Below are positions 28,962 to 39,824 of a stretch of DNA of 64,000 bases, one piece after another (within the stretch, counting starts at the first letter, position 1; the number at the start of each line of letters is the position of its first letter). Location of the stretch: assembly GCA_034530615.2 (NCBI GenBank), contig JAVRCV020000032.1:96001-160000 (forward strand), written 5' to 3'. The notes under the pieces are model-generated. The model ran no database searches. It saw only the letters and a program-made list of their open reading frames with translations, and was not told the origin of the DNA. Made by a program: the position numbers and the translations under genes. Source of the stretch: Aulosira sp. ZfuVER01. Lineage in GTDB: Bacteria; Cyanobacteriota; Cyanobacteriia; Cyanobacteriales; Nostocaceae.

Positions 28962-30377
28962 ATGACTACTTTCCCGGACTTGGAGAGATATACAAACAAT
29001 CAACAACAGCAAAGTTACCTTAACCAGGAACTGAATTTTGCTGCTGAGGATTACAGCCTTTTGACTGACCTTTATCAATTAACGATGGCAGCTTGTTACA
29101 CAGGTGAAGGTGTAGAGCAAAAACAAGCCAGCTTTGAATTATTTGTCAGGAAGTTACCAGAGGGTTTTGGCTATTTAATTGCAATGGGGCTAACGCAAGC
29201 CTTGGAATATTTGCAAAAATTGCGTTTTAGTTCCTCTCAGATAGCAGCCTTACAAGCGACAGGAATTTTTGCCCATGCGAGCGATCGCTTTTGGTCATTG
29301 CTAGCCGCAGGGTGTTTTACTGGAGATGTATGGGCAGTACCCGAAGGAACCGCCGTGTTTGCCAATCAGCCATTGCTGCGGATTGAAGCACCACTTTGGC
29401 AAGCACAACTAGTAGAAACCTATTTATTAAATACGATTAATTATCAAACTTTAATTGCCACCAGAGCAGCAAGAATCAGGGATGTAGCAGGAGAACAAGC
29501 AACACTTTTAGAATTTGGCACAAGAAGGGCATTTAGTCCTCAAGGTTCATTGTGGGCGGCGCGGGCGGCGTTAGCAGGGGGATTAGATTCAACTTCTAAT
29601 GTGTTAGCCGCGCTACAACTCCACCAAAAGCCAAGTGGTACGATGGCTCACGCCTTAGTTATGGCACTATCAGCAATGGAAGGTACTGAAGCACAAGCTT
29701 TTAGCGCATTTCATCGATATTTTCCGGGTGCGCCATTGTTGATTGATACTTACGATACGATCGCTGCTGCCCAAAAGTTAGCTCAAAAAGTAAATTCTGG
29801 TGAAATGCATTTGACTGGAGTGAGGTTAGACTCTGGAGATTTGGTGAGTTTGTCCAAACAAGTGCGATCGCTCCTTCCTAGCGTGACAATTTTTGCTAGT
29901 GGCGATTTGGATGAGTGGGAAATTGCCAGATTAAAAGCAGAGGGTGCGGAAATTGATGGCTATGGATTAGGTACAAAGCTAGTTACGGGTACGCCTGTTA
30001 ATGGTGTTTATAAACTTGTAGACATTGATGGTATCCCCGTCATGAAAGAATCCCGTGACAAAGCTACCTATCCCGGACGCAAGCAAATTTTTCGCTCGTT
30101 TGCCGGAGGGACAATCAAAGTAGATAGATTGGGATTAGCTACGGAAATGCCTTTGGGCGAAGAACCTTTGTTGCAACTGGTGATGAAAGCAGGGAAACAT
30201 CTGCAACCGCCAGAGTCTTTAGCAACAATTCGCCAACGTACCGCAGCCTCGGTTGCTAGTTTACCGCCGGAAACACGACGCTTAGATCGTCCTGTATCGG
30301 TGAATGTGGAAATTTCTGCCGCATTACAAGAGTTGACACAAAAGACTCACAAACGAATCGCAGAGGCACAGAAGTAA
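28962..30377 (+). CDS. pncB: Nicotinate phosphoribosyltransferase
   Basis: LLTDLYQLTM, EFGTRRA, GTMAH, LIDTYD, GVRLDSGD, GVYKL. Confidence 0.95.
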   Translation: MTTFPDLERYTNNQQQQSYLNQELNFAAEDYSLLTDLYQLTMAACYTGEGVEQKQASFELFVRKLPEGFGYLIAMGLTQALEYLQKLRFSSSQIAALQATGIFAHASDRFWSLLAAGCFTGDVWAVPEGTAVFANQPLLRIEAPLWQAQLVETYLLNTINYQTLIATRAARIRDVAGEQATLLEFGTRRAFSPQGSLWAARAALAGGLDSTSNVLAALQLHQKPSGTMAHALVMALSAMEGTEAQAFSAFHRYFPGAPLLIDTYDTIAAAQKLAQKVNSGEMHLTGVRLDSGDLVSLSKQVRSLLPSVTIFASGDLDEWEIARLKAEGAEIDGYGLGTKLVTGTPVNGVYKLVDIDGIPVMKESRDKATYPGRKQIFRSFAGGTIKVDRLGLATEMPLGEEPLLQLVMKAGKHLQPPESLATIRQRTAASVASLPPETRRLDRPVSVNVEISAALQELTQKTHKRIAEAQK

Positions 30378-30378
30378 A

Positions 30379-30981
30379 ATGATGAGAATTGCTTTATTTG
30401 GTACTAGTGCCGATCCACCAACAGCTGGGCATCAGGAGATTCTTAGTTGGTTGTCTGAGCATTATGATTGGGTGGCAGTTTGGGCGGCGGATAATCCTTT
30501 TAAAACCCATCAAACAGCATTGGTACATCGGGCAGCAATGTTGCAATTGTTGATTGCGGATATCCAGACATCACGGCACAATGTTGCGTTAGAACAGGAA
30601 TTAAGTAGTTTCCGAACTCTAGAGACAGTGGCCAAAGCGAAAGTTTGTTGGGGAGAGGATACCGAGTATACCTTGGTGATTGGTTCAGATTTACTGAATC
30701 AGCTACCCCGTTGGTATCAAGTTGAAGATTTGTTGCGGCAAGTGCAATTATTAGTAGTGCCGCGACCGGGATATGCGATAGATGAGTCTAGTTTAGAGGG
30801 AGTGCAAAAGCTAGGCGGGAAAATTGCGATCGCCAGTTTGACTGGACTAGATATTTCCTCCACAGCCTATCGCGAACATGGAGATTCCCAAGCGCTTACC
30901 CCCTCTATCGTCGCTTATATTAATCAAGAGCATTTGTACAAATGCCAGGACGCAACCACAAAAAGTTTCCAACTCCGGTAA
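30379..30981 (+). CDS. nadD: Nicotinate-nucleotide adenylyltransferase
   Basis: FGTSADPPTAGH (HxGH-like), IGSD, W..., ISST motifs; operon context. Confidence 0.9.
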   Translation: MMRIALFGTSADPPTAGHQEILSWLSEHYDWVAVWAADNPFKTHQTALVHRAAMLQLLIADIQTSRHNVALEQELSSFRTLETVAKAKVCWGEDTEYTLVIGSDLLNQLPRWYQVEDLLRQVQLLVVPRPGYAIDESSLEGVQKLGGKIAIASLTGLDISSTAYREHGDSQALTPSIVAYINQEHLYKCQDATTKSFQLR

Positions 30982-31688
30982 ATCAACAACCTTTGGCTGA
31001 TTTTAAAGTTGGTGTTGATAATGTAATTTTTTCTGTAGATACTGCCCAAAATCGACTGCTCGTGCTGTTGGTGATGCGACAACAGGAGCCATTTTTAAAT
31101 TCTTGGAGTCTTCCCGGTACTTTGGTGCGTCAAGGCGAATCTTTAGAAGATGCTGCCTATCGGATCATGGCTGAAAAAATCCGCGTGAAGAATCTCTATT
31201 TAGAACAGTTATATACTTTTGGCGGACCGAATCGCGATCCACGGGAAGCCACTGATAGTTATGGTGTGCGTTATCTCTCCGTGAGTTATTTTGCCTTAGT
31301 GCGGTTTGAAGAAGCAGAATTAATTGCTGATGGCGTTACTGGTATAGCTTGGTATCCGGTGAAACAATTGCCACAATTAGCATTTGATCACAATCAAGTT
31401 TTGGCTTACGGACACAGGCGTTTACGCAATAAGTTGGAGTATAGCCCGGTAGCTTTTGAAGTTTTGCCAGAAATGTTTACTTTAAATGATTTATATCAGT
31501 TATACACGACAGTTTTAGGCGAAAACTTCTCCGATTATTCTAATTTTCGCTCTCGTCTACTCAAGTTAGGTTTTTTGTGCGATACCGGAATTAAGGTATC
31601 CCGTGGTGCTGGCCGTCCGGCCAGTTTGTATAAATTTGACGCTGAAGCCTTTGCCCCCTTTAAGGATAAGCCTTTGGTATTTATTTAA
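30942..31688 (+). CDS. nrtR: Nudix-related transcriptional regulator NrtR
   Basis: Degenerate Nudix box (WSLPG...GESLEDAAYR), LEQLYTF..P.RDPR, LAFDH, winged-HTH FTL..L..LY...NFR...GRPA.LY. Confidence 0.9.
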   Translation: MPGRNHKKFPTPVNQQPLADFKVGVDNVIFSVDTAQNRLLVLLVMRQQEPFLNSWSLPGTLVRQGESLEDAAYRIMAEKIRVKNLYLEQLYTFGGPNRDPREATDSYGVRYLSVSYFALVRFEEAELIADGVTGIAWYPVKQLPQLAFDHNQVLAYGHRRLRNKLEYSPVAFEVLPEMFTLNDLYQLYTTVLGENFSDYSNFRSRLLKLGFLCDTGIKVSRGAGRPASLYKFDAEAFAPFKDKPLVFI

Positions 31689-31744
31689 CTCTAAAGTCAA
31701 GAGTCAACAGGCAATAGACAAATGACCAATGACAAACAACTAAT

Positions 31745-33484
31745 ATGAAAATTGCGATCGCTCAACTTAATCCTAAAATTGGTGATTTAACGGGTAACGC
31801 CCAACAAATTCTGCAAGCAGCGCAAAAAGCAGTAGCATCTGGCGCGCGGTTGTTGTTAACGCCAGAACTTTCTTTGTGCGGCTATCCCCCGAGGGATTTA
31901 TTGCTAAATCCTAGTTTTGTGGCAGCAATGAATACTACTCTGAAAAAATTGGCGAGAGATTTACCGCCAAATTTAGCTGTTTTGGTAGGAACTGTAGAAG
32001 AAAATCTCAAAGCAAACACCACAGGCGGTAAATCTTTATTTAATAGCATTGCTTTATTGCTAGGCGGACAGGTAAAGCAAGTTTTTCACAAACGGCTTTT
32101 ACCTACTTATGATGTATTTGACGAAAACCGCTATTTTGAACCGGGGTTACAAGCTAACTATTTCACCTTGGACGATCTCCATATTGGTGTGACTGTTTGC
32201 GAAGACTTATGGAATGATGAGGAATTTTGGGGCAAACGCACTTATGCAGTTAACCCGATTGCGGATTTAGCTATTTTGGGTGTGGATTTGATTGTGAATT
32301 TATCTGCCTCACCTTTCAGTGTCGGTAAGCAGAGATTTAGAGAACTCATGCTGAAGCATAGCGCCGTGCGTTTTCAACAGCCGATGATCTATGCTAACCA
32401 AGTCGGTGGCAATGATGACTTGATATTTGATGGTTGCAGTTTCGCCTTAAGTCGTCAAGGTGAAATTGTCTCTCGTATCCGTGGTTTTGAAGCAGATCTG
32501 GCAATAGTTGAATTTGACGAGAAACAACGAGATTTTAAATTAGGTAAAGTCGCACCTTTATATCTGTCTGAAGACGAAGAAATTTGGCAGGCTTTGGTTT
32601 TAGGCGTGCGCGATTATGCCCGTAAGTGTGGCTTTTCTAAAGTAGTACTGGGTTTGAGTGGGGGGATTGATTCTTCACTAGTAGCTGCGATCGCTGTGGC
32701 GGCACTTGGTAAAGAAAATGTCTTCGGTGTCTTGATGCCTTCTCCCTACAGTTCTGAACATTCCATCAGTGATGCTTTGGCATTAGGGGAAAATTTAGGT
32801 ATAAAAACTACTATTTTACCAATTGCCGAACCCATGCAAACCTTCGATCGCGCTTTAGGTGAGTTGTTTGCTGGGACTGAGTTTGGCATCGCTGAAGAAA
32901 ACCTGCAATCTCGGATTCGCGGTAACTTATTAATGGCGATCGCTAACAAATTCGGCTATCTGCTTTTATCAACTGGTAATAAATCAGAGATGGCAGTTGG
33001 TTACTGTACTCTGTATGGTGATATGAATGGCGGGTTAGCAGTAATTGCAGACGTTCCCAAAACCCGTGTTTATTCAATTTGCCATTGGTTAAACCGTAAG
33101 GGTGAAATGATTCCCCAAAATGTCCTCACCAAAGCACCCAGCGCTGAACTCAAACCAGGCCAAGTCGATCAAGATTCTCTCCCACCCTATGAGATTTTAG
33201 ATGACATCTTAGAACGCCTGATTCACAAACACCAATCAGCAGCCGAAATAGTCACCGCTGGACACGATCCAGTAATTGTAGACCGAGTCATCCAAATGCT
33301 TGCCCGTGCCGAATTCAAACGTCGACAAGCACCCCCAGGCTTAAAAATCACCGATCGCGCCTTTGGTACTGGTTGGCGGATGCCAATTGCTAGTAGCTGG
33401 GCTGCTTTAAAAAATGCCTCCCAATCTAAAACCATTCCTAGCTTAGTAGGTGGGGATGGCAAAGATGACAATCTGCGAATATAG
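31745..33484 (+). CDS. nadE: Glutamine-dependent NAD+ synthetase
   Basis: Nitrilase-fold N-terminus (TPELSLCGY, K..LP.Y.VFDE, VCEDLW) plus GLSGGIDS, ENLQSRIRG, TGNKSE, GYCTLYGD, PSAEL. Confidence 0.96.
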   Translation: MKIAIAQLNPKIGDLTGNAQQILQAAQKAVASGARLLLTPELSLCGYPPRDLLLNPSFVAAMNTTLKKLARDLPPNLAVLVGTVEENLKANTTGGKSLFNSIALLLGGQVKQVFHKRLLPTYDVFDENRYFEPGLQANYFTLDDLHIGVTVCEDLWNDEEFWGKRTYAVNPIADLAILGVDLIVNLSASPFSVGKQRFRELMLKHSAVRFQQPMIYANQVGGNDDLIFDGCSFALSRQGEIVSRIRGFEADLAIVEFDEKQRDFKLGKVAPLYLSEDEEIWQALVLGVRDYARKCGFSKVVLGLSGGIDSSLVAAIAVAALGKENVFGVLMPSPYSSEHSISDALALGENLGIKTTILPIAEPMQTFDRALGELFAGTEFGIAEENLQSRIRGNLLMAIANKFGYLLLSTGNKSEMAVGYCTLYGDMNGGLAVIADVPKTRVYSICHWLNRKGEMIPQNVLTKAPSAELKPGQVDQDSLPPYEILDDILERLIHKHQSAAEIVTAGHDPVIVDRVIQMLARAEFKRRQAPPGLKITDRAFGTGWRMPIASSWAALKNASQSKTIPSLVGGDGKDDNLRI

Positions 33485-33942: not shown

Positions 33943-34209
33943 GTGAGTCAACCAGACCCAATCTTAGCGAAAATTCTAGCGGGGACTTCTGATACAGCAA
34001 TCCCTTTCGCTCAAATATGGCAACTTTTAATCAGACTAGGCTTTGATGAGCAAATTCGTGGCGGAAATTATATTTTTACCAAAAAAGGTATTGAAGAAAT
34101 ATTAAACATCCAACATAAAAAAGGCAAAGCTAAAGCCTATCAAGTGAAACTAGTGCGTGCAGTCATTCTCAAGTACCAGATAGGAATTAATAATGAACCT
34201 TCACTATGA
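33943..34209 (+). CDS. hicA: HicA-family toxin-like protein, catalytic His apparently absent
   Basis: IPF..I..LL..LGF....RG...IF.K.GIEEILNIQ...GKAKAYQVK pattern; overlaps the downstream hicB. Confidence 0.8.
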   Translation: MSQPDPILAKILAGTSDTAIPFAQIWQLLIRLGFDEQIRGGNYIFTKKGIEEILNIQHKKGKAKAYQVKLVRAVILKYQIGINNEPSL

Positions 34210-34405
34210 AATAATTCTCTACTGGAGCGAAGAAGACCAAGCATTTATTGCTGAAGTTCCAGAACTACCGGGATGTGCTGCTGATGGGGAAACTTATCAA
34301 GCAGCACTGCAAAATATCCAAATTATTATGCAAGAATGGCTAGAAATTGCTCAAAGATTAGGGCGTCAAATTCCTGAACCTAAACAACACTCATTAACTA
34401 CCTAA
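34193..34405 (+). CDS. hicB: HicB-family antitoxin (short form without DNA-binding domain)
   Basis: YWSEEDQAFIAEVPELPGCAADGETYQAAL...W...G..IPEP. Confidence 0.9.
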   Translation: MNLHYEIILYWSEEDQAFIAEVPELPGCAADGETYQAALQNIQIIMQEWLEIAQRLGRQIPEPKQHSLTT

Positions 34406-35094: not shown

Positions 35095-35364
35095 TTAGGC
35101 TTCAGCATCAAGATTTACTTTAGGACTAATGTTTAAGACATGAATAATTCTGTCTCTATCGTAAATAATATAAATTATACGATAATCAAGCACATAAATA
35201 CGCCATCCTTCAGTTTTAGCTATTCTTTGACAATTTAACGGTCTGGGGTTTTCAGCAAGATTCCAAATCTGATCGATAACTAGTCGGTAATTGTAAGGCT
35301 GACAATTGTGTAAATGTCTCAACTGTTCAAGAGCAGGGCATTCTTTGATAAAAATTTGATACAA
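35095..35364 (-). CDS. RelE/ParE-superfamily toxin-like protein (divergent)
   Basis: LAENPRP..C..I...EGWRI...DYRIIY.I....IHVL.I pattern; TTG at 35364 is 8 nt from AGGAG, alternative TTG at 35370 overlaps the upstream TGA. Confidence 0.75.
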   Translation of the reverse strand: MYQIFIKECPALEQLRHLHNCQPYNYRLVIDQIWNLAENPRPLNCQRIAKTEGWRIYVLDYRIIYIIYDRDRIIHVLNISPKVNLDAEA

Positions 35365-35366
35365 TT

Positions 35367-36158
35367 TCAACGCTCCTGTTCAATTTTGGCAAGTGCTTGC
35401 TTAAGCGGAATAGCCTTACCTTCAAAAGTCTGGGTAGCTTTAAAGGCACGAATAGATTCTTCTTCATCCTTATCCATAACTGCTCGCTCAAAAGGAATAG
35501 CCTCAGATATATACGTCTGAGCAGCTAAATAGGCACGAAGAGATTCTGATTCTTCTAAAATTATTTCACGCTTTTTTTTCAGAATTGGTGTTTTGTGTTG
35601 CAAAAAACCTTCAAGCTGAATTGCACTGCAACCCATGTCAAAGGCAAACTCAATAGGAGAACCTCCACCTAATTGGGGTTCGTAAAATCCTAGTGTTTCA
35701 TAAAACCCAGTAGCAAATGTGATTGCAGCACTGTCCCCTATTGAATTATTCATGCCTATTACATAATCAATATGTTGGACAATTGCCTCTGCTTGAAATT
35801 CAGAGTAACAGGCATTCAGCAACACACATTCTATTTGCTTAGAAAACAGACCAAAAAGTCCAGCCAGCGCTTCTCCTGTTACTAGTTTTCCTTTTCCAAT
35901 TTCATGCTCAAACAATAATCCTTGTTTCCCTAGGCCATGTCCACAAAAATGGACAATGTGTGGTTGATACTGTAACAATGCTCGACGAATATCTTTTGGA
36001 CGTACGGCAGAATAAGGCTGGAGTAAAAAATTATCGCGATGTTTAGACCCTCGCAAAGCTTCTTCAATCTCACGCACTTCTTCACCCAAACGTAGGCGTG
36101 CTGTTTGGCTGGGATTTGCTGGTAGAACCAAGATCGTTTTTTTCACGTAATTAAACAT
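35367..36158 (-). CDS. CHAT (caspase HetF-associated) domain protein fused to a duplicated antitoxin-like C-terminal motif
   Basis: ANP....LRL.EEVREIEE, IVHFCGHG (His), VLLNACYS (Cys), FATGFY; tail has 2 x ES[LI]RA...AIP motif. Confidence 0.85.
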   Translation of the reverse strand: MFNYVKKTILVLPANPSQTARLRLGEEVREIEEALRGSKHRDNFLLQPYSAVRPKDIRRALLQYQPHIVHFCGHGLGKQGLLFEHEIGKGKLVTGEALAGLFGLFSKQIECVLLNACYSEFQAEAIVQHIDYVIGMNNSIGDSAAITFATGFYETLGFYEPQLGGGSPIEFAFDMGCSAIQLEGFLQHKTPILKKKREIILEESESLRAYLAAQTYISEAIPFERAVMDKDEEESIRAFKATQTFEGKAIPLKQALAKIEQER

Positions 36159-36383
36159 TAAAAATGTGAATATCAGCGCATTCACACTTTTTTACCACTC
36201 TCACCAAATAAAAATCTGTAATCCTTGTTTCAAAGGAATTTTTGCAATATCAAAACTGTTAACGATTAATATCAGCACATACCAGATACACAAAGAATTA
36301 CTACTCTGATTTTCAGAGTATGAGTGTGTGTTTTTTTATAACTTAAGAGTGATTTAAATAGGATGGAATATAAACCTACTTTC

Positions 36384-37391
36384 TCATCCCAGACCTAGTA
36401 AATCTGCACGAGGTTTAAAGGTTTCAATTTGGCGGATTTTTTCGTATAGTTCTTGTTCTTCCGGACTAATAGTTTTTGGCGTAACTATTTGAATTTCCAC
36501 CAACTGATCGCCACGTTTACCACTGTCATTAGGGTAGCCTTTATTTGCTAACCGAAATCTTTGACCAGATCTAACTCCTGGGGGAATGGTCATTTTCACA
36601 GGGCCATCAAGAGTTGGTGCTTCTACCTGTCCTCCCAAGACAGCTTCACTGGGAGTTACGGGTATCTGGCAAAATATATTAGAACCGTCTAGTTTAAATA
36701 AGTGATGTGGCTCGACGGTAATTTTTAAGTATAAGTCACCGCCGCCAATGCCTTGGTCACGTAGTCGGATAGTTTGACCTGTGACCATACCAGCAGGCAT
36801 AGTTACTTCTAGCGATCGCCCATCTTCCAGGCGAATGCGTTCGTTACCACCTACATAAGCTTTTTCTAATGGTAGCGTCAATCTGGCTTCTATATCCCGA
36901 CGGGCGGGACGTGGTTGGCTTTTGGGTACTGTGTACTCTACTCTGCTTTTAGGGGAACGGAACGGATCGCTATTTGTGCTGCTAGTTGAACCATTTCTGG
37001 TGTCTTTACGACCAACACCAACACCGATTACTTGATTAATAAAACTTTCAAAATCTGCAAATTGGCTAGGATCTACTTCTTGAGTGCTGTTGCGGTTGTT
37101 AGCACGATTATCCCAAGCTTTACCTTTTGGCGTCTGTTTGTTGGCAAAGCCTTTTTGCTTCCAGTAGCGGCTAAATTGGTCATACTGCGATCGCTTGGCT
37201 GGATCGGAAAGGACTTCATAAGCCTCACCAACAACCTTAAATTTTTCCTCTGCTGCTTTGTTTCCAGGATTCAGGTCAGGGTGATACTGTCGTGCTAAAC
37301 GCCGATAAACCTTTTTAATTTCCTCGCTTGAGGCTTCTTTAGGTACTCCTAAAATTTCGTAGTAATCGCGAAAATTCTGCAAATTTTGCAT
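36384..37391 (-). CDS. dnaJ: DnaJ-class co-chaperone (J domain plus C-terminal domain, no zinc finger)
   Basis: [40 protein letters not shown]; directly downstream of dnaK. Confidence 0.93.
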
Positions 37392-37562: not shown

Positions 37563-39824
37563 CTACAACCAATCATCATCATCGTCATCCCAGTTGTCCT
37601 GGTAGCTTGGACGAGGTGGTTTGCGAGAAGACCGATTATCAGAGGAGGAGGAACGATTATCTCTGCCAAAGTCTCTGTTAGAGTCTCTGGTAGAATCCCT
37701 GCCATAATCCCTGTTAGAGTCCCTGCCATAGTCCCTTGTAGAGTCTCTACCATAATCTCTGGTAGAATCCCTGCCATAATCCCTGTTGGCGTCCCTGCCG
37801 TAGTCCCTGGTAGAATCCCTGCCATAATCCCTGTTTGAGTCCCTGCCATAGTCTCTGGTAGAATCCCTGCCATAATCCCTGTTGGAGTCTCTGCCAAAGG
37901 AATCACGATCCCAGTATGAATCTTTGGGATAATCGCGTTCTCGTTCTTTGTCGCCACCAGTAAAGATGTCGCGAATCGTACCAAATAAGTCGTCGTCTTC
38001 GTCCTCAGCATAATACTGACGAACTTCCCGGTTTAGCTCATACAAAGCATCTTGCAGGTCGGCGTAAGATTGGTCAATGCCGCGATCGTCATTGTCTTTT
38101 AAAGCGTCCTTCAGTTCCCGACAGATGTTGTCAATGCGTTGGCGGCGGGTGCGGGCAAACTGCATCCCAAACTCTAACGCTACTTCTCTAAGTTGTCGTT
38201 CGGCTTGGCCAATCAACCCTTCAGAACGAGTCCGCTTTTCTACTCGTTCTTTGCGTTCCCGGTCGATATCAGCATATTTTTGAGCATCCTGAATCATCCG
38301 GTTTACTTCTGACTCACTCAACGTAGAAGCACCTTGGATGGTTATACTTTGCTCTCTACCAGTGGTTCTATCCAGGGCTGTTACTTGTAAAATCCCGTTA
38401 GCATCAATATCAAATGACACCTGAATTTGGGGAATACCTCTCGGCGCTGGGGGTATGCCATACAACTTGAAACGTCCTAAAGACTTGTTATTTGTTGCCA
38501 TTTCCCGTTCGCCCTGAACTACGTGGATTTCCACAGTATTCTGGTTATTTTCTGATGTGGAGAAGATATCAGAACGGCGTACTGGGATGGTGGTATTGCG
38601 GGGAATCAATTTTTTCATGACACCCCCGATGGTTTCCAAGCCTACAGATAGGGGTGTTACATCCAAAAGCAGCACATCTTTGAGTTCGCCTGCCAGAATA
38701 CCAGCTTGAATTGCTGCGCCTACTGCTACTACTTCATCGGGGTTGACGTTTTCATTGGGTTCTATGCCAATTAGGTCACGCACTAACTGCTTAACCATTG
38801 GAATTCGGGTGGAACCACCTACTAACACCACTTCTTCAATGTCTGTAGGTGAGAGTCCAGAATCTTTTAATGCTCGTTTGACTGGAGTCCGCAACCTTCC
38901 TACTAAATCACCGCACAAATCCTCAAATTGGGAACGAGTGATGCGAGTTTCTAGATGTTTGGGGCCATCCTCAGTCGCGGTGATAAAAGGTAAATTAATA
39001 TCGGTAACGCTGACAGCAGAAAGTTCGATTTTGGCTTTTTCCGCAGCTTCCATCAGACGTTGTAAAGCTTGGCGATCGCGTCTTAAGTCTACACCTTCTG
39101 CTTCTAAAAATTGCTCTGCTAACCAATCTACAATTTTTCTGTCAAAATCATTACCACCAAGCTGAGTATCTCCACTAGTAGCTTTAACTTCAAAAACTCC
39201 ATCACCAACTTCTAGAATCGACACGTCAAAGGTACCGCCACCTAAATCGAATACTAAGATAGTTTCCGTACTACCACGATCCAATCCGTAAGCTAAAGAA
39301 GCGGCGGTAGGTTCATTGAGAATCCGTAAAACATCTAAACCAGCAATTCTGCCAGCATCGCGAGTGGCTTGCCGCTGAGAATCATTAAAATAAGCAGGAA
39401 CCGTAATTACTGCGCCGGTTACTGTTTCGCCCAAGTAGGTGCTGGCATCATCTGCCAATTTCTTCAGCACCATTGCCGAAACTTCTTCGGCGGCAAATTC
39501 CTTATTCAACCGGGGACAAGCAATCTTAATATTACCAACTTCGTCTTTGCGGATAGTATAGGGTACACGCTTTGATTCTGGACTCAGCTCGCTATACCTG
39601 CGCCCAATAAAGCGTTTCACCGCAAAAAAAGTATTTTGGGGATTCAGGACAGTTTGTCGCCGTGCCATTTGTCCCACTACCCTTTCGCCTTCTTTACTAA
39701 AGCCAACAACGGAGGGGGTTGTGCGCATTCCTTCTGCATTGGCAATCACCACCGGCTTGCCACCCTCCATCACGGCGACTACTGAGTTGGTTGTACCCAA
39801 GTCGATGCCGACTACCTTGCCCAT
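37563..39824 (-). CDS. dnaK: DnaK/Hsp70, cyanobacterial DnaK3-type with extended tail
   Basis: [35 protein letters not shown]; ends WDDDDDDWL and pairs with dnaJ as in DnaK3 loci. Confidence 0.96.
37653..37892 (-). repeat. Coding tandem repeat in the dnaK tail: 20 RDxx tetrapeptides, 24-bp unit RD[SA][NT]RDYG
   Basis: Eight RDYG units visible in both protein and DNA. Confidence 0.95.

Follow-up and report, generated by a model that had tools for sequence, protein, structure and literature searches.

Type II pairs of a RelB-like antitoxin (PF18506) and a RelE toxin, compact CHAT proteases, and two-gene modules with a protease domain in the antitoxin gene are the described systems closest to the locus analyzed here. 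The toxin family PF05016 covers both the RelE and the ParE types. For RelE, R61, R81, and Y87 are described as important and K52 and K54 as less so; Y87A lowers activity, and K54A alone has little effect (Neubauer et al., PMC2807027). SAVED-CHAT of type III-B CRISPR-Cas (structure 8TL0), whose catalytic dyad is named H375/C422, is described as activated by filament formation (bioRxiv 10.1101/2023.06.23.546230). Protease-domain antitoxins are represented by RosmerTA, which carries an ImmA metalloprotease domain (PMC10440598), and DdvA-DdvS, a TPR-CHAT anti-sigma factor, links a CHAT domain to a module that binds a partner (PMC11506125).

In the window, that is, the whole analyzed stretch of 64,000 nt from Aulosira sp. 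ZfuVER01, a CHAT gene and then a RelE/ParE-fold gene lie on the minus strand, directly behind dnaK-dnaJ. Downstream of dnaJ (36384..37391, minus strand; Pfam DnaJ and DnaJ_C domains), the CHAT-tail ORF occupies positions 35367–36158 (minus strand). ATG 36158 is also in frame; however, the gene probably starts at GTG 36146, because this codon is aligned with the ATG of five orthologues. The partner gene (35095..35364, minus strand) probably starts at TTG 35364 and encodes a protein of 89 aa (35364–35095), because this codon lies 8 nt after a Shine-Dalgarno AGGAG (35373..35377, minus strand) and lines up with the orthologue starts. A preceding sequence-only reading of this DNA had described the two genes as coupled, with the AGGAG in the last CHAT codons and a partner start overlapping or abutting the CHAT stop; the position of the AGGAG stands, whereas the stop-overlapping TTG (35370), merely 2 nt behind the AGGAG (35377–35373), is the less likely start. 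The AGGAG was found in 6 of 6 fusion loci, as opposed to 0 of 4 aligned loci of plain (unfused) antitoxin-RelE pairs, and in three of the six fusion junctions it overlaps the CHAT stop codon. A conserved upstream block with a TTGA hexamer (36216..36244, minus strand), aligned in five fusion loci and putatively promoter-like, accompanies the cassette; in the genome G013 it is situated further upstream, and there cassette and block are found on the opposite side of a gene for a small membrane protein. A sigma-70 promoter scan, which performed at chance level (4 found, 6.0 expected), did not call this block.

The neighbors in the window are dnaJ, a small membrane ORF, and a hicB-like pair, and there is no defense island at the site. 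The latter pair (33943–34405, plus strand), a second toxin-antitoxin-like pair 700 bp from the cassette, is common to several congeners; it is HicB-like by Pfam, and its upstream 88-aa ORF gave no significant family match. A cluster of four genes at positions 28962–33484 (plus strand) resembles, judging from its motifs, an NAD salvage set of phosphoribosyltransferase, adenylyltransferase, NUDIX regulator, and NAD synthetase. Behind dnaJ, a near-perfect palindrome (36302–36320), also present in G013, may be a terminator or an operator, and the C-terminal end of DnaK (37563–39824, minus strand) consists of approximately ten imperfect repeats of 8 residues (RDYGRD-type), which differ between relatives.

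The CHAT (caspase-like, clan CD) protease domain (35574..36146, minus strand) matched PF12770 with 37.5 bits against a cut-off of 24 (E 2.3e-9) and the PADLOC chat profile with an E-value of 5.8e-19, and its structural model had a pLDDT of 89. The closest solved CHAT was SAVED-CHAT 8TL0 (E 6e-19; Z 23.5; rmsd 2.5 over 187 residues). The predicted catalytic His (H74 of P0001; 35937..35939, minus strand) and Cys (C117 of P0001; 35808..35810, minus strand) were assigned by alignment to the 8TL0 dyad with a constant numbering offset of 20. The compact CHAT domain with an intact His (HFCGHG) and Cys (LNACYS) described by the sequence-only reading is thus present, both motifs lying in the CHAT-tail ORF. 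The dyad was kept in 7 of 7 fusions and also in 61–62 of 62 unrelated CHATs, so its conservation is uninformative about the cassette specifically; the fold is caspase-like with an aligned dyad, and proteolysis itself is predicted. The maximum-likelihood (ML) dN/dS of the CHAT domain was 0.19. Six other compact CHATs, including stand-alone paralogues, are encoded in the same genome, and sister CHATs carry TPR, GUN4, CVNH, bDLD3, EAD7, NB-ARC, Mrr, or CHASE2 domains in place of the tail. The stretch LKKKRE, previously taken for a basic linker, turned out to be nothing special but the ordinary basic end of this CHAT family (stand-alone paralogues end in KKNS or KKRQ). In the model, the last CHAT strand passes straight into the helix of the first tail repeat (pLDDT 95–97), without a flexible linker.

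The tail consists of two repeats, the first at residues 201–229 (35472..35558, minus strand; a predicted helix) and the second at residues 230–263 (35367..35471 including the stop codon, minus strand). The two copies, 29 aa apart with 11 of 22 residues identical as noted before, also share 67 of 105 nt in their duplicated DNA. A profile built from the C-termini of six stand-alone antitoxins, with no fusion sequence included, matched them with 32.6 and 30.9 bits (i-E 4.6e-8 and 1.6e-7 among 17,621 segments) and, in a whole-genome search, with E-values of 2.2e-6 and 3.1e-6; these scores indicate similarity beyond chance. The same profile recovered the fusion tail in all five fusion genomes searched, as the top match in four of them, and by BLASTP repeats 1 and 2 shared 14 of 22 and 15 of 29 residues, respectively, with the L006 antitoxin. 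Pfam and NCBIfam gave no match for the tail alone, no solved structure matched antitoxin or tail by sequence, and a PADLOC "gop" match (E 0.009) was rejected as weak. A short-protein homologue search with the tail gave no candidate, and the stand-alone antitoxins were found through genome searches.

These antitoxins are 66–67 aa long, and each is followed by a canonical RelE. PF18506 (RelB-like) matched plain antitoxins at residues 4–35 (3 of 3 scanned), whereas a Pfam scan of the fusion protein did not find this N-terminal domain. DNA over the tail-toxin junction is collinear between the fused and the plain antitoxin-RelE forms. Comparison of the two forms shows that, by homology, a cyanobacterial CHAT domain replaced the N-terminal half of the antitoxin, and that the toxin-binding tail was multiplied to two or three copies. 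Both proposals made earlier on this point, as far as they concern homology of the tail to the C-terminal helix of an antitoxin and a protease in place of the N-terminal half, are borne out by the profile and BLASTP matches and by the position of the CHAT domain.

The partner ORF matched ParE_toxin (PF05016) with 25.8 bits against a cut-off of 23 and is predicted to adopt a RelE fold (pLDDT 91.9; TM 0.78 to 1WMI), in agreement with the RelE/ParE-like ORF reported downstream of CHAT; by its sequence, its ancestry is RelE-type. We mapped residue positions on the E. coli RelE chain and counted them in the 6 fusion partners and in 44 plain toxins, the 44 pairs of the plain set having been drawn from the best 80 of 195 loci and from four family loci. 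The K52 position was kept in 5 of 6 fusions and 44 of 44 plain proteins, and R61 likewise in 5 of 6 and 44 of 44 (the plain count being largely fixed by the search pattern); a basic residue at R81 occurred in 6 of 6 and 41 of 44. In contrast, K54 (0 of 6 versus 43 of 44), G79 (0 of 6 versus 44 of 44), and Y87 (0 of 6 versus 42 of 44) had disappeared from the fusion partners, two of which have an aromatic residue one position before that of Y87. Net charges ranged from −4 to +1 in the fusion partners, compared with a mean of approximately +8 in plain toxins. The window partner has R at 52, Y at 54, R at 61, K at 81, D at 87, and a net charge of +1, and thus lacks the complete RelE catalytic set (K52, K54, R61, R81, and Y87) and the basic surface, and the G078 partner has additionally lost K52 and R61. 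Some toxicity may still remain, given that R61 persists in 5 of 6 partners, that all 6 have a basic residue at R81, and that K54A on its own has little effect in RelE. The partner has probably ceased to act as a ribosomal RNase, although this loss of activity is likely rather than certain.

The partner nevertheless appears far from decayed. Its hydrophobic core is kept at 24–25 of 26 positions, and its ML dN/dS was 0.20 in the core and 0.56 over the whole protein (p 0.001 versus 1), compared with 0.16 for plain RelE. In a neutral simulation with substitutions only, both ORFs would stay open with a P of 0.005 (one branch, 0.35 changes per site). Because the ORFs are open, the core dN/dS is 0.20, and the Shine-Dalgarno is conserved in 6 of 6 loci, the partner is, as far as substitution patterns indicate, still under selection for its fold and expression, not for a ribosome-facing surface. 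Outside the core, its dN/dS of 0.68 was indistinguishable from 1 (p 0.09), compared with 0.21 for plain toxins, and relaxed constraint fits this value as well as a regulatory role does. Tail repeat 1 gave an ML dN/dS of 0.45, and the plain antitoxin 0.15. Positive selection was tested and not shown (G000–G013 tail, pN versus pS, p 0.10; non-core dN/dS 0.68).

These counts bear on the sequence-only reading's first suggestion, in which the CHAT protease cuts its own tail and frees a still-toxic partner, either a weak RNase or a ParE-like protein binder. The retained K52 and R61 positions and basic R81 agree with it, protease-domain antitoxins exist in RosmerTA, and RelE/ParE-fold proteins can act without RNase chemistry (PMC10440598); however, K54, G79, Y87, and the basic surface are gone in 6 of 6 partners, G078 lacks K52 and R61 as well, no flexible linker precedes repeat 1, and a near-neutral surface is ill-suited to binding the ribosome, gyrase, or another conserved target, given the non-core dN/dS of plain toxins. 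We consider the release of an active toxin doubtful, and this scenario the least probable of those discussed here. The second suggestion of that reading, regulation of the protease by the RelE-fold partner, fits better.

When we searched 389 family genomes with the tail, 12 matches were obtained, of which 5 were fusions, 5 were stand-alone antitoxins, and 2, in G358 and G190, lay in unrelated ORFs and were dropped. With 10 candidates scored per genome, the intact fusion cassette was found in 6 of the 389 genomes from four genera: G000 and G013 (g1) with two repeats, G024 and G157 (g11) and G152 (g60) with three, and G078 (g38) with two, the first degenerate. A seventh fusion protein, P0004, came from a 902-bp metagenome contig, and the cassette also occurs in the records Calothrix sp. 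NIES-2100, Trichormus sp. ATA11-4-KO1, and Nostocales LEGE 11386, whose proteins duplicate ones already counted. The search for a CHAT-tail gene followed by RelE that had been proposed with the sequence-only reading thus disposes of the possibility, raised there, of a decaying recombinant unique to this strain, all six cassettes being intact. The genome searches read through stops, so broken fusion copies could have been detected. At the order level, the fusion was not found among 400 genomes queried with P0004 (6 candidates scored per genome) or among 360 genomes searched with a C-terminal profile (11 candidates per genome); it was likewise absent from viral contigs and from the 15 of 80 plasmid matches that were listed, and the best 80 of 268 metagenome loci contained one fusion, a duplicate of one counted above.

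The 3′ end of dnaJ marks the site at which every fusion or plain cassette of the family was found, and each of the six fusion cassettes is no more than approximately 1 kb away from it. Of the 389 genomes, 7 have a plain antitoxin there: four copies are intact and accompanied by RelE, and three are broken; fusion cassettes are intact in 6 of 6 cases, in contrast to plain copies, of which 3 of 7 are broken. Neither form was found within 1.5 kb past dnaJ in 13 of 14 congeners and 2 further g60 genomes. In L003, L099, L212, L217, and L218, other unrelated small genes occupy the site, which marks it as a high-turnover spot.

In phylogenetic trees, the seven fused CHAT domains formed one branch among 76 rows (SH-aLRT 87, quick search), and the six partners formed one branch among 50 rows (96/96) with a stem of approximately 1.4 changes per site, two of them being long branches; the trees indicate that each fusion gene has a single origin. 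The best explanation of the alignments and trees is that the cassette was derived once from a RelB-like (PF18506)/RelE pair behind dnaJ. The toxin, as sequence comparison shows, kept its fold, gained its own ribosome-binding site, and lost most features for cutting mRNA on the ribosome. Synonymous distances of the cassette are of the same order as those of dnaJ but lower, both between G000 and G013 (0.14 versus 0.30) and between G000 and other genera (0.75–0.88 versus 1.0–1.5). The cassette may have been inherited vertically and lost many times, or it may have been transferred within the family.

The same antitoxin tail occurs as one near-intact copy on GmrSD nucleases, membrane proteins, and others (at least 69 long proteins, of which 23 were inspected). 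P0114, P0116, P0118, P0126, and P0130 are GmrSD-type restriction nucleases of approximately 620 aa (some partial) whose C-terminal end is a copy of the tail. A subset of P0121–P0146 comprises diverse predicted membrane proteins of 284–318 aa with no clear Pfam family and the same tail at the end; sequence comparison sets them apart as a second family that captured the tail independently. Further joins of the antitoxin are to GUN4 domains in the N-terminal position (P0094, P0097, P0100, and P0107), to an unannotated 250-aa domain (P0080 and P0088), and to CopG-DUF2188 (P0112 and P0120), and some of these may be read-through or gene-calling artefacts. Because the tail is found on several unrelated proteins, its capture seems easy and need not be regulatory, and it may begin as simple addiction.

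Capture of this kind is the core of an explanation that needs no switch: a deletion fused CHAT to the antitoxin tail, and the fusion was fixed because it neutralized an active RelE, a toxin that subsequently became blunted and persists as a structural cap that folds or protects the tail, with CHAT acting like a stand-alone paralogue. Capture by at least three unrelated protein families is in line with this account, as are a dN/dS near 1 on the partner surface, the fast turnover of the site with 13 of 14 congeners lacking the cassette there, and the stand-alone CHATs of the same type in the genome. Nevertheless, a harmless toxin and its tail should be lost, yet 6 of 6 cassettes are intact at synonymous distances of up to ~0.9–1.0; the tail has been multiplied, not lost; and the Shine-Dalgarno site was gained and then retained, including at loci where it and the CHAT stop codon overlap. 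We therefore regard this explanation as rather unlikely, though a serious competitor to regulation of the protease by its partner.

The preferred reading requires the tail to bind the partner. The predicted tail-partner complex scored 0.59 versus 0.00 for the best control, the runs agreed in at least 84% of contacts, and the partner pLDDT was at least 76; in the benchmark, among 157 solved complexes, 18 reached the mark with scores of 0.60 or under, as did both of the mismatches that passed out of 215. The pair is of a textbook type, and plain pairs make up 44 of the 50 alignment rows, so the score speaks for likeness to such pairs, not for binding by this copy; predicted support for binding of the partner by the tail is weak. 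Net charges of tail and partner were inversely related (Spearman −0.88, n = 6 related, non-independent rows), which is suggestive. Fusion tails have drifted from the acidic composition of plain antitoxins, which bind basic toxins.

The multiplied tails might instead serve as bait: active RelE-family toxins, or similar proteins from mobile elements, would be lured to the two or three sites, and their binding would cluster and activate CHAT, with the disarmed partner as a placeholder that sets the threshold. The predicted multiple binding sites, the fast-evolving interface, the inverse charges, and the wide occurrence of plain toxin relatives (44 pairs) would suit such a sensor. However, the composition of the tails has drifted away from that of the acidic antitoxins, whose targets are basic toxins; tests did not show positive selection, and the six charge rows are non-independent. 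We judge a bait sensor improbable, only slightly less so than a protease-gated toxin.

Our preferred reading, tentative and short of an even chance, is that the roles in the module are inverted: the protease would be the effector, capped by the disarmed RelE fold by way of the tail repeats. The RelE fold would still bind the repeats, and the bound partner or partners would block the self-association that this type of CHAT needs for activity, a step proposed because repeat 1 begins directly on the last strand of the protease. Loss or displacement of the partner, through shut-off of host translation or a competing incoming protein, would switch proteolysis on, leading to growth arrest or death of the infected cell in the filament; the cassette contains no substrate gene. 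Stated in full, a once-toxic RelE, acting via its old antitoxin interface as a switch with two or three sites, would inhibit a caspase-like death protease and sense translation shut-off or invading proteins in multicellular cyanobacteria, a version that we hold somewhat more tentatively still. More generally, tail capture by unrelated genes may be a way in which such switches arise. If true, an immune switch was assembled from spare parts, the toxin becoming an inhibitor and the antitoxin tail the control arm of a protease, and there would be an experimental handle on the abundant compact CHAT proteases of cyanobacteria and on programmed death in their filamentous members. Since relatives show, at one locus, both the ancestral pair and the derived cassette as well as decayed copies and empty sites, the transition is directly testable with two small genes.

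Compared with described systems, the cassette is neither a standard RelBE pair nor a CRISPR- or CBASS-linked CHAT effector. As in RelB-like (PF18506)/RelE pairs, an antitoxin-type gene lies upstream of, and is coupled to, a RelE-fold gene, and the gene order, the homology of the antitoxin C-terminal helix, the RelE fold, the collinear junction DNA, and the chromosomal site are shared; the differences are the protease in place of the antitoxin N-terminal domain, the two or three tail copies, and the large loss of RNase and ribosome-binding features. With SAVED-CHAT, the cassette shares the closest solved CHAT fold and the aligned His/Cys dyad, without its SAVED sensor, CRISPR/CBASS context, or PCaspase substrate gene; no SAVED or TPR sensor, adjacent cas or CBASS operon, or substrate gene was found in the cassette or its neighbors. 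RosmerTA likewise has a protease domain in the antitoxin gene of a two-gene module, but its protease fold is another and its toxin is active, and the portion of its description available to us contains no borrowed RelE-binding tail (PMC10440598). DdvA-DdvS (Z 14.5) also ties CHAT to a partner-binding module, but it is described as a membrane protein whose active site is incomplete and which holds a sigma factor (PMC11506125). Sister CHATs carry bDLD3, EAD7, TPR, and NB-ARC at the tail position, as do caspase effectors with effector-associated or death-like adaptors; those adaptors are described as recruiting by homotypic contacts, whereas the adaptor of the cassette would be a heterotypic antitoxin-toxin interface (PMC7159879, PMC8195603). 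The word RelE is absent from the main texts of these two papers, and their supplementary domain tables could list the architecture; in the literature, judged mostly by titles and abstract openings, a CHAT-tail gene with RelE was not found described. Both parts belong to known families; their combination would form a switch of a new kind if the control logic is indeed inverted.
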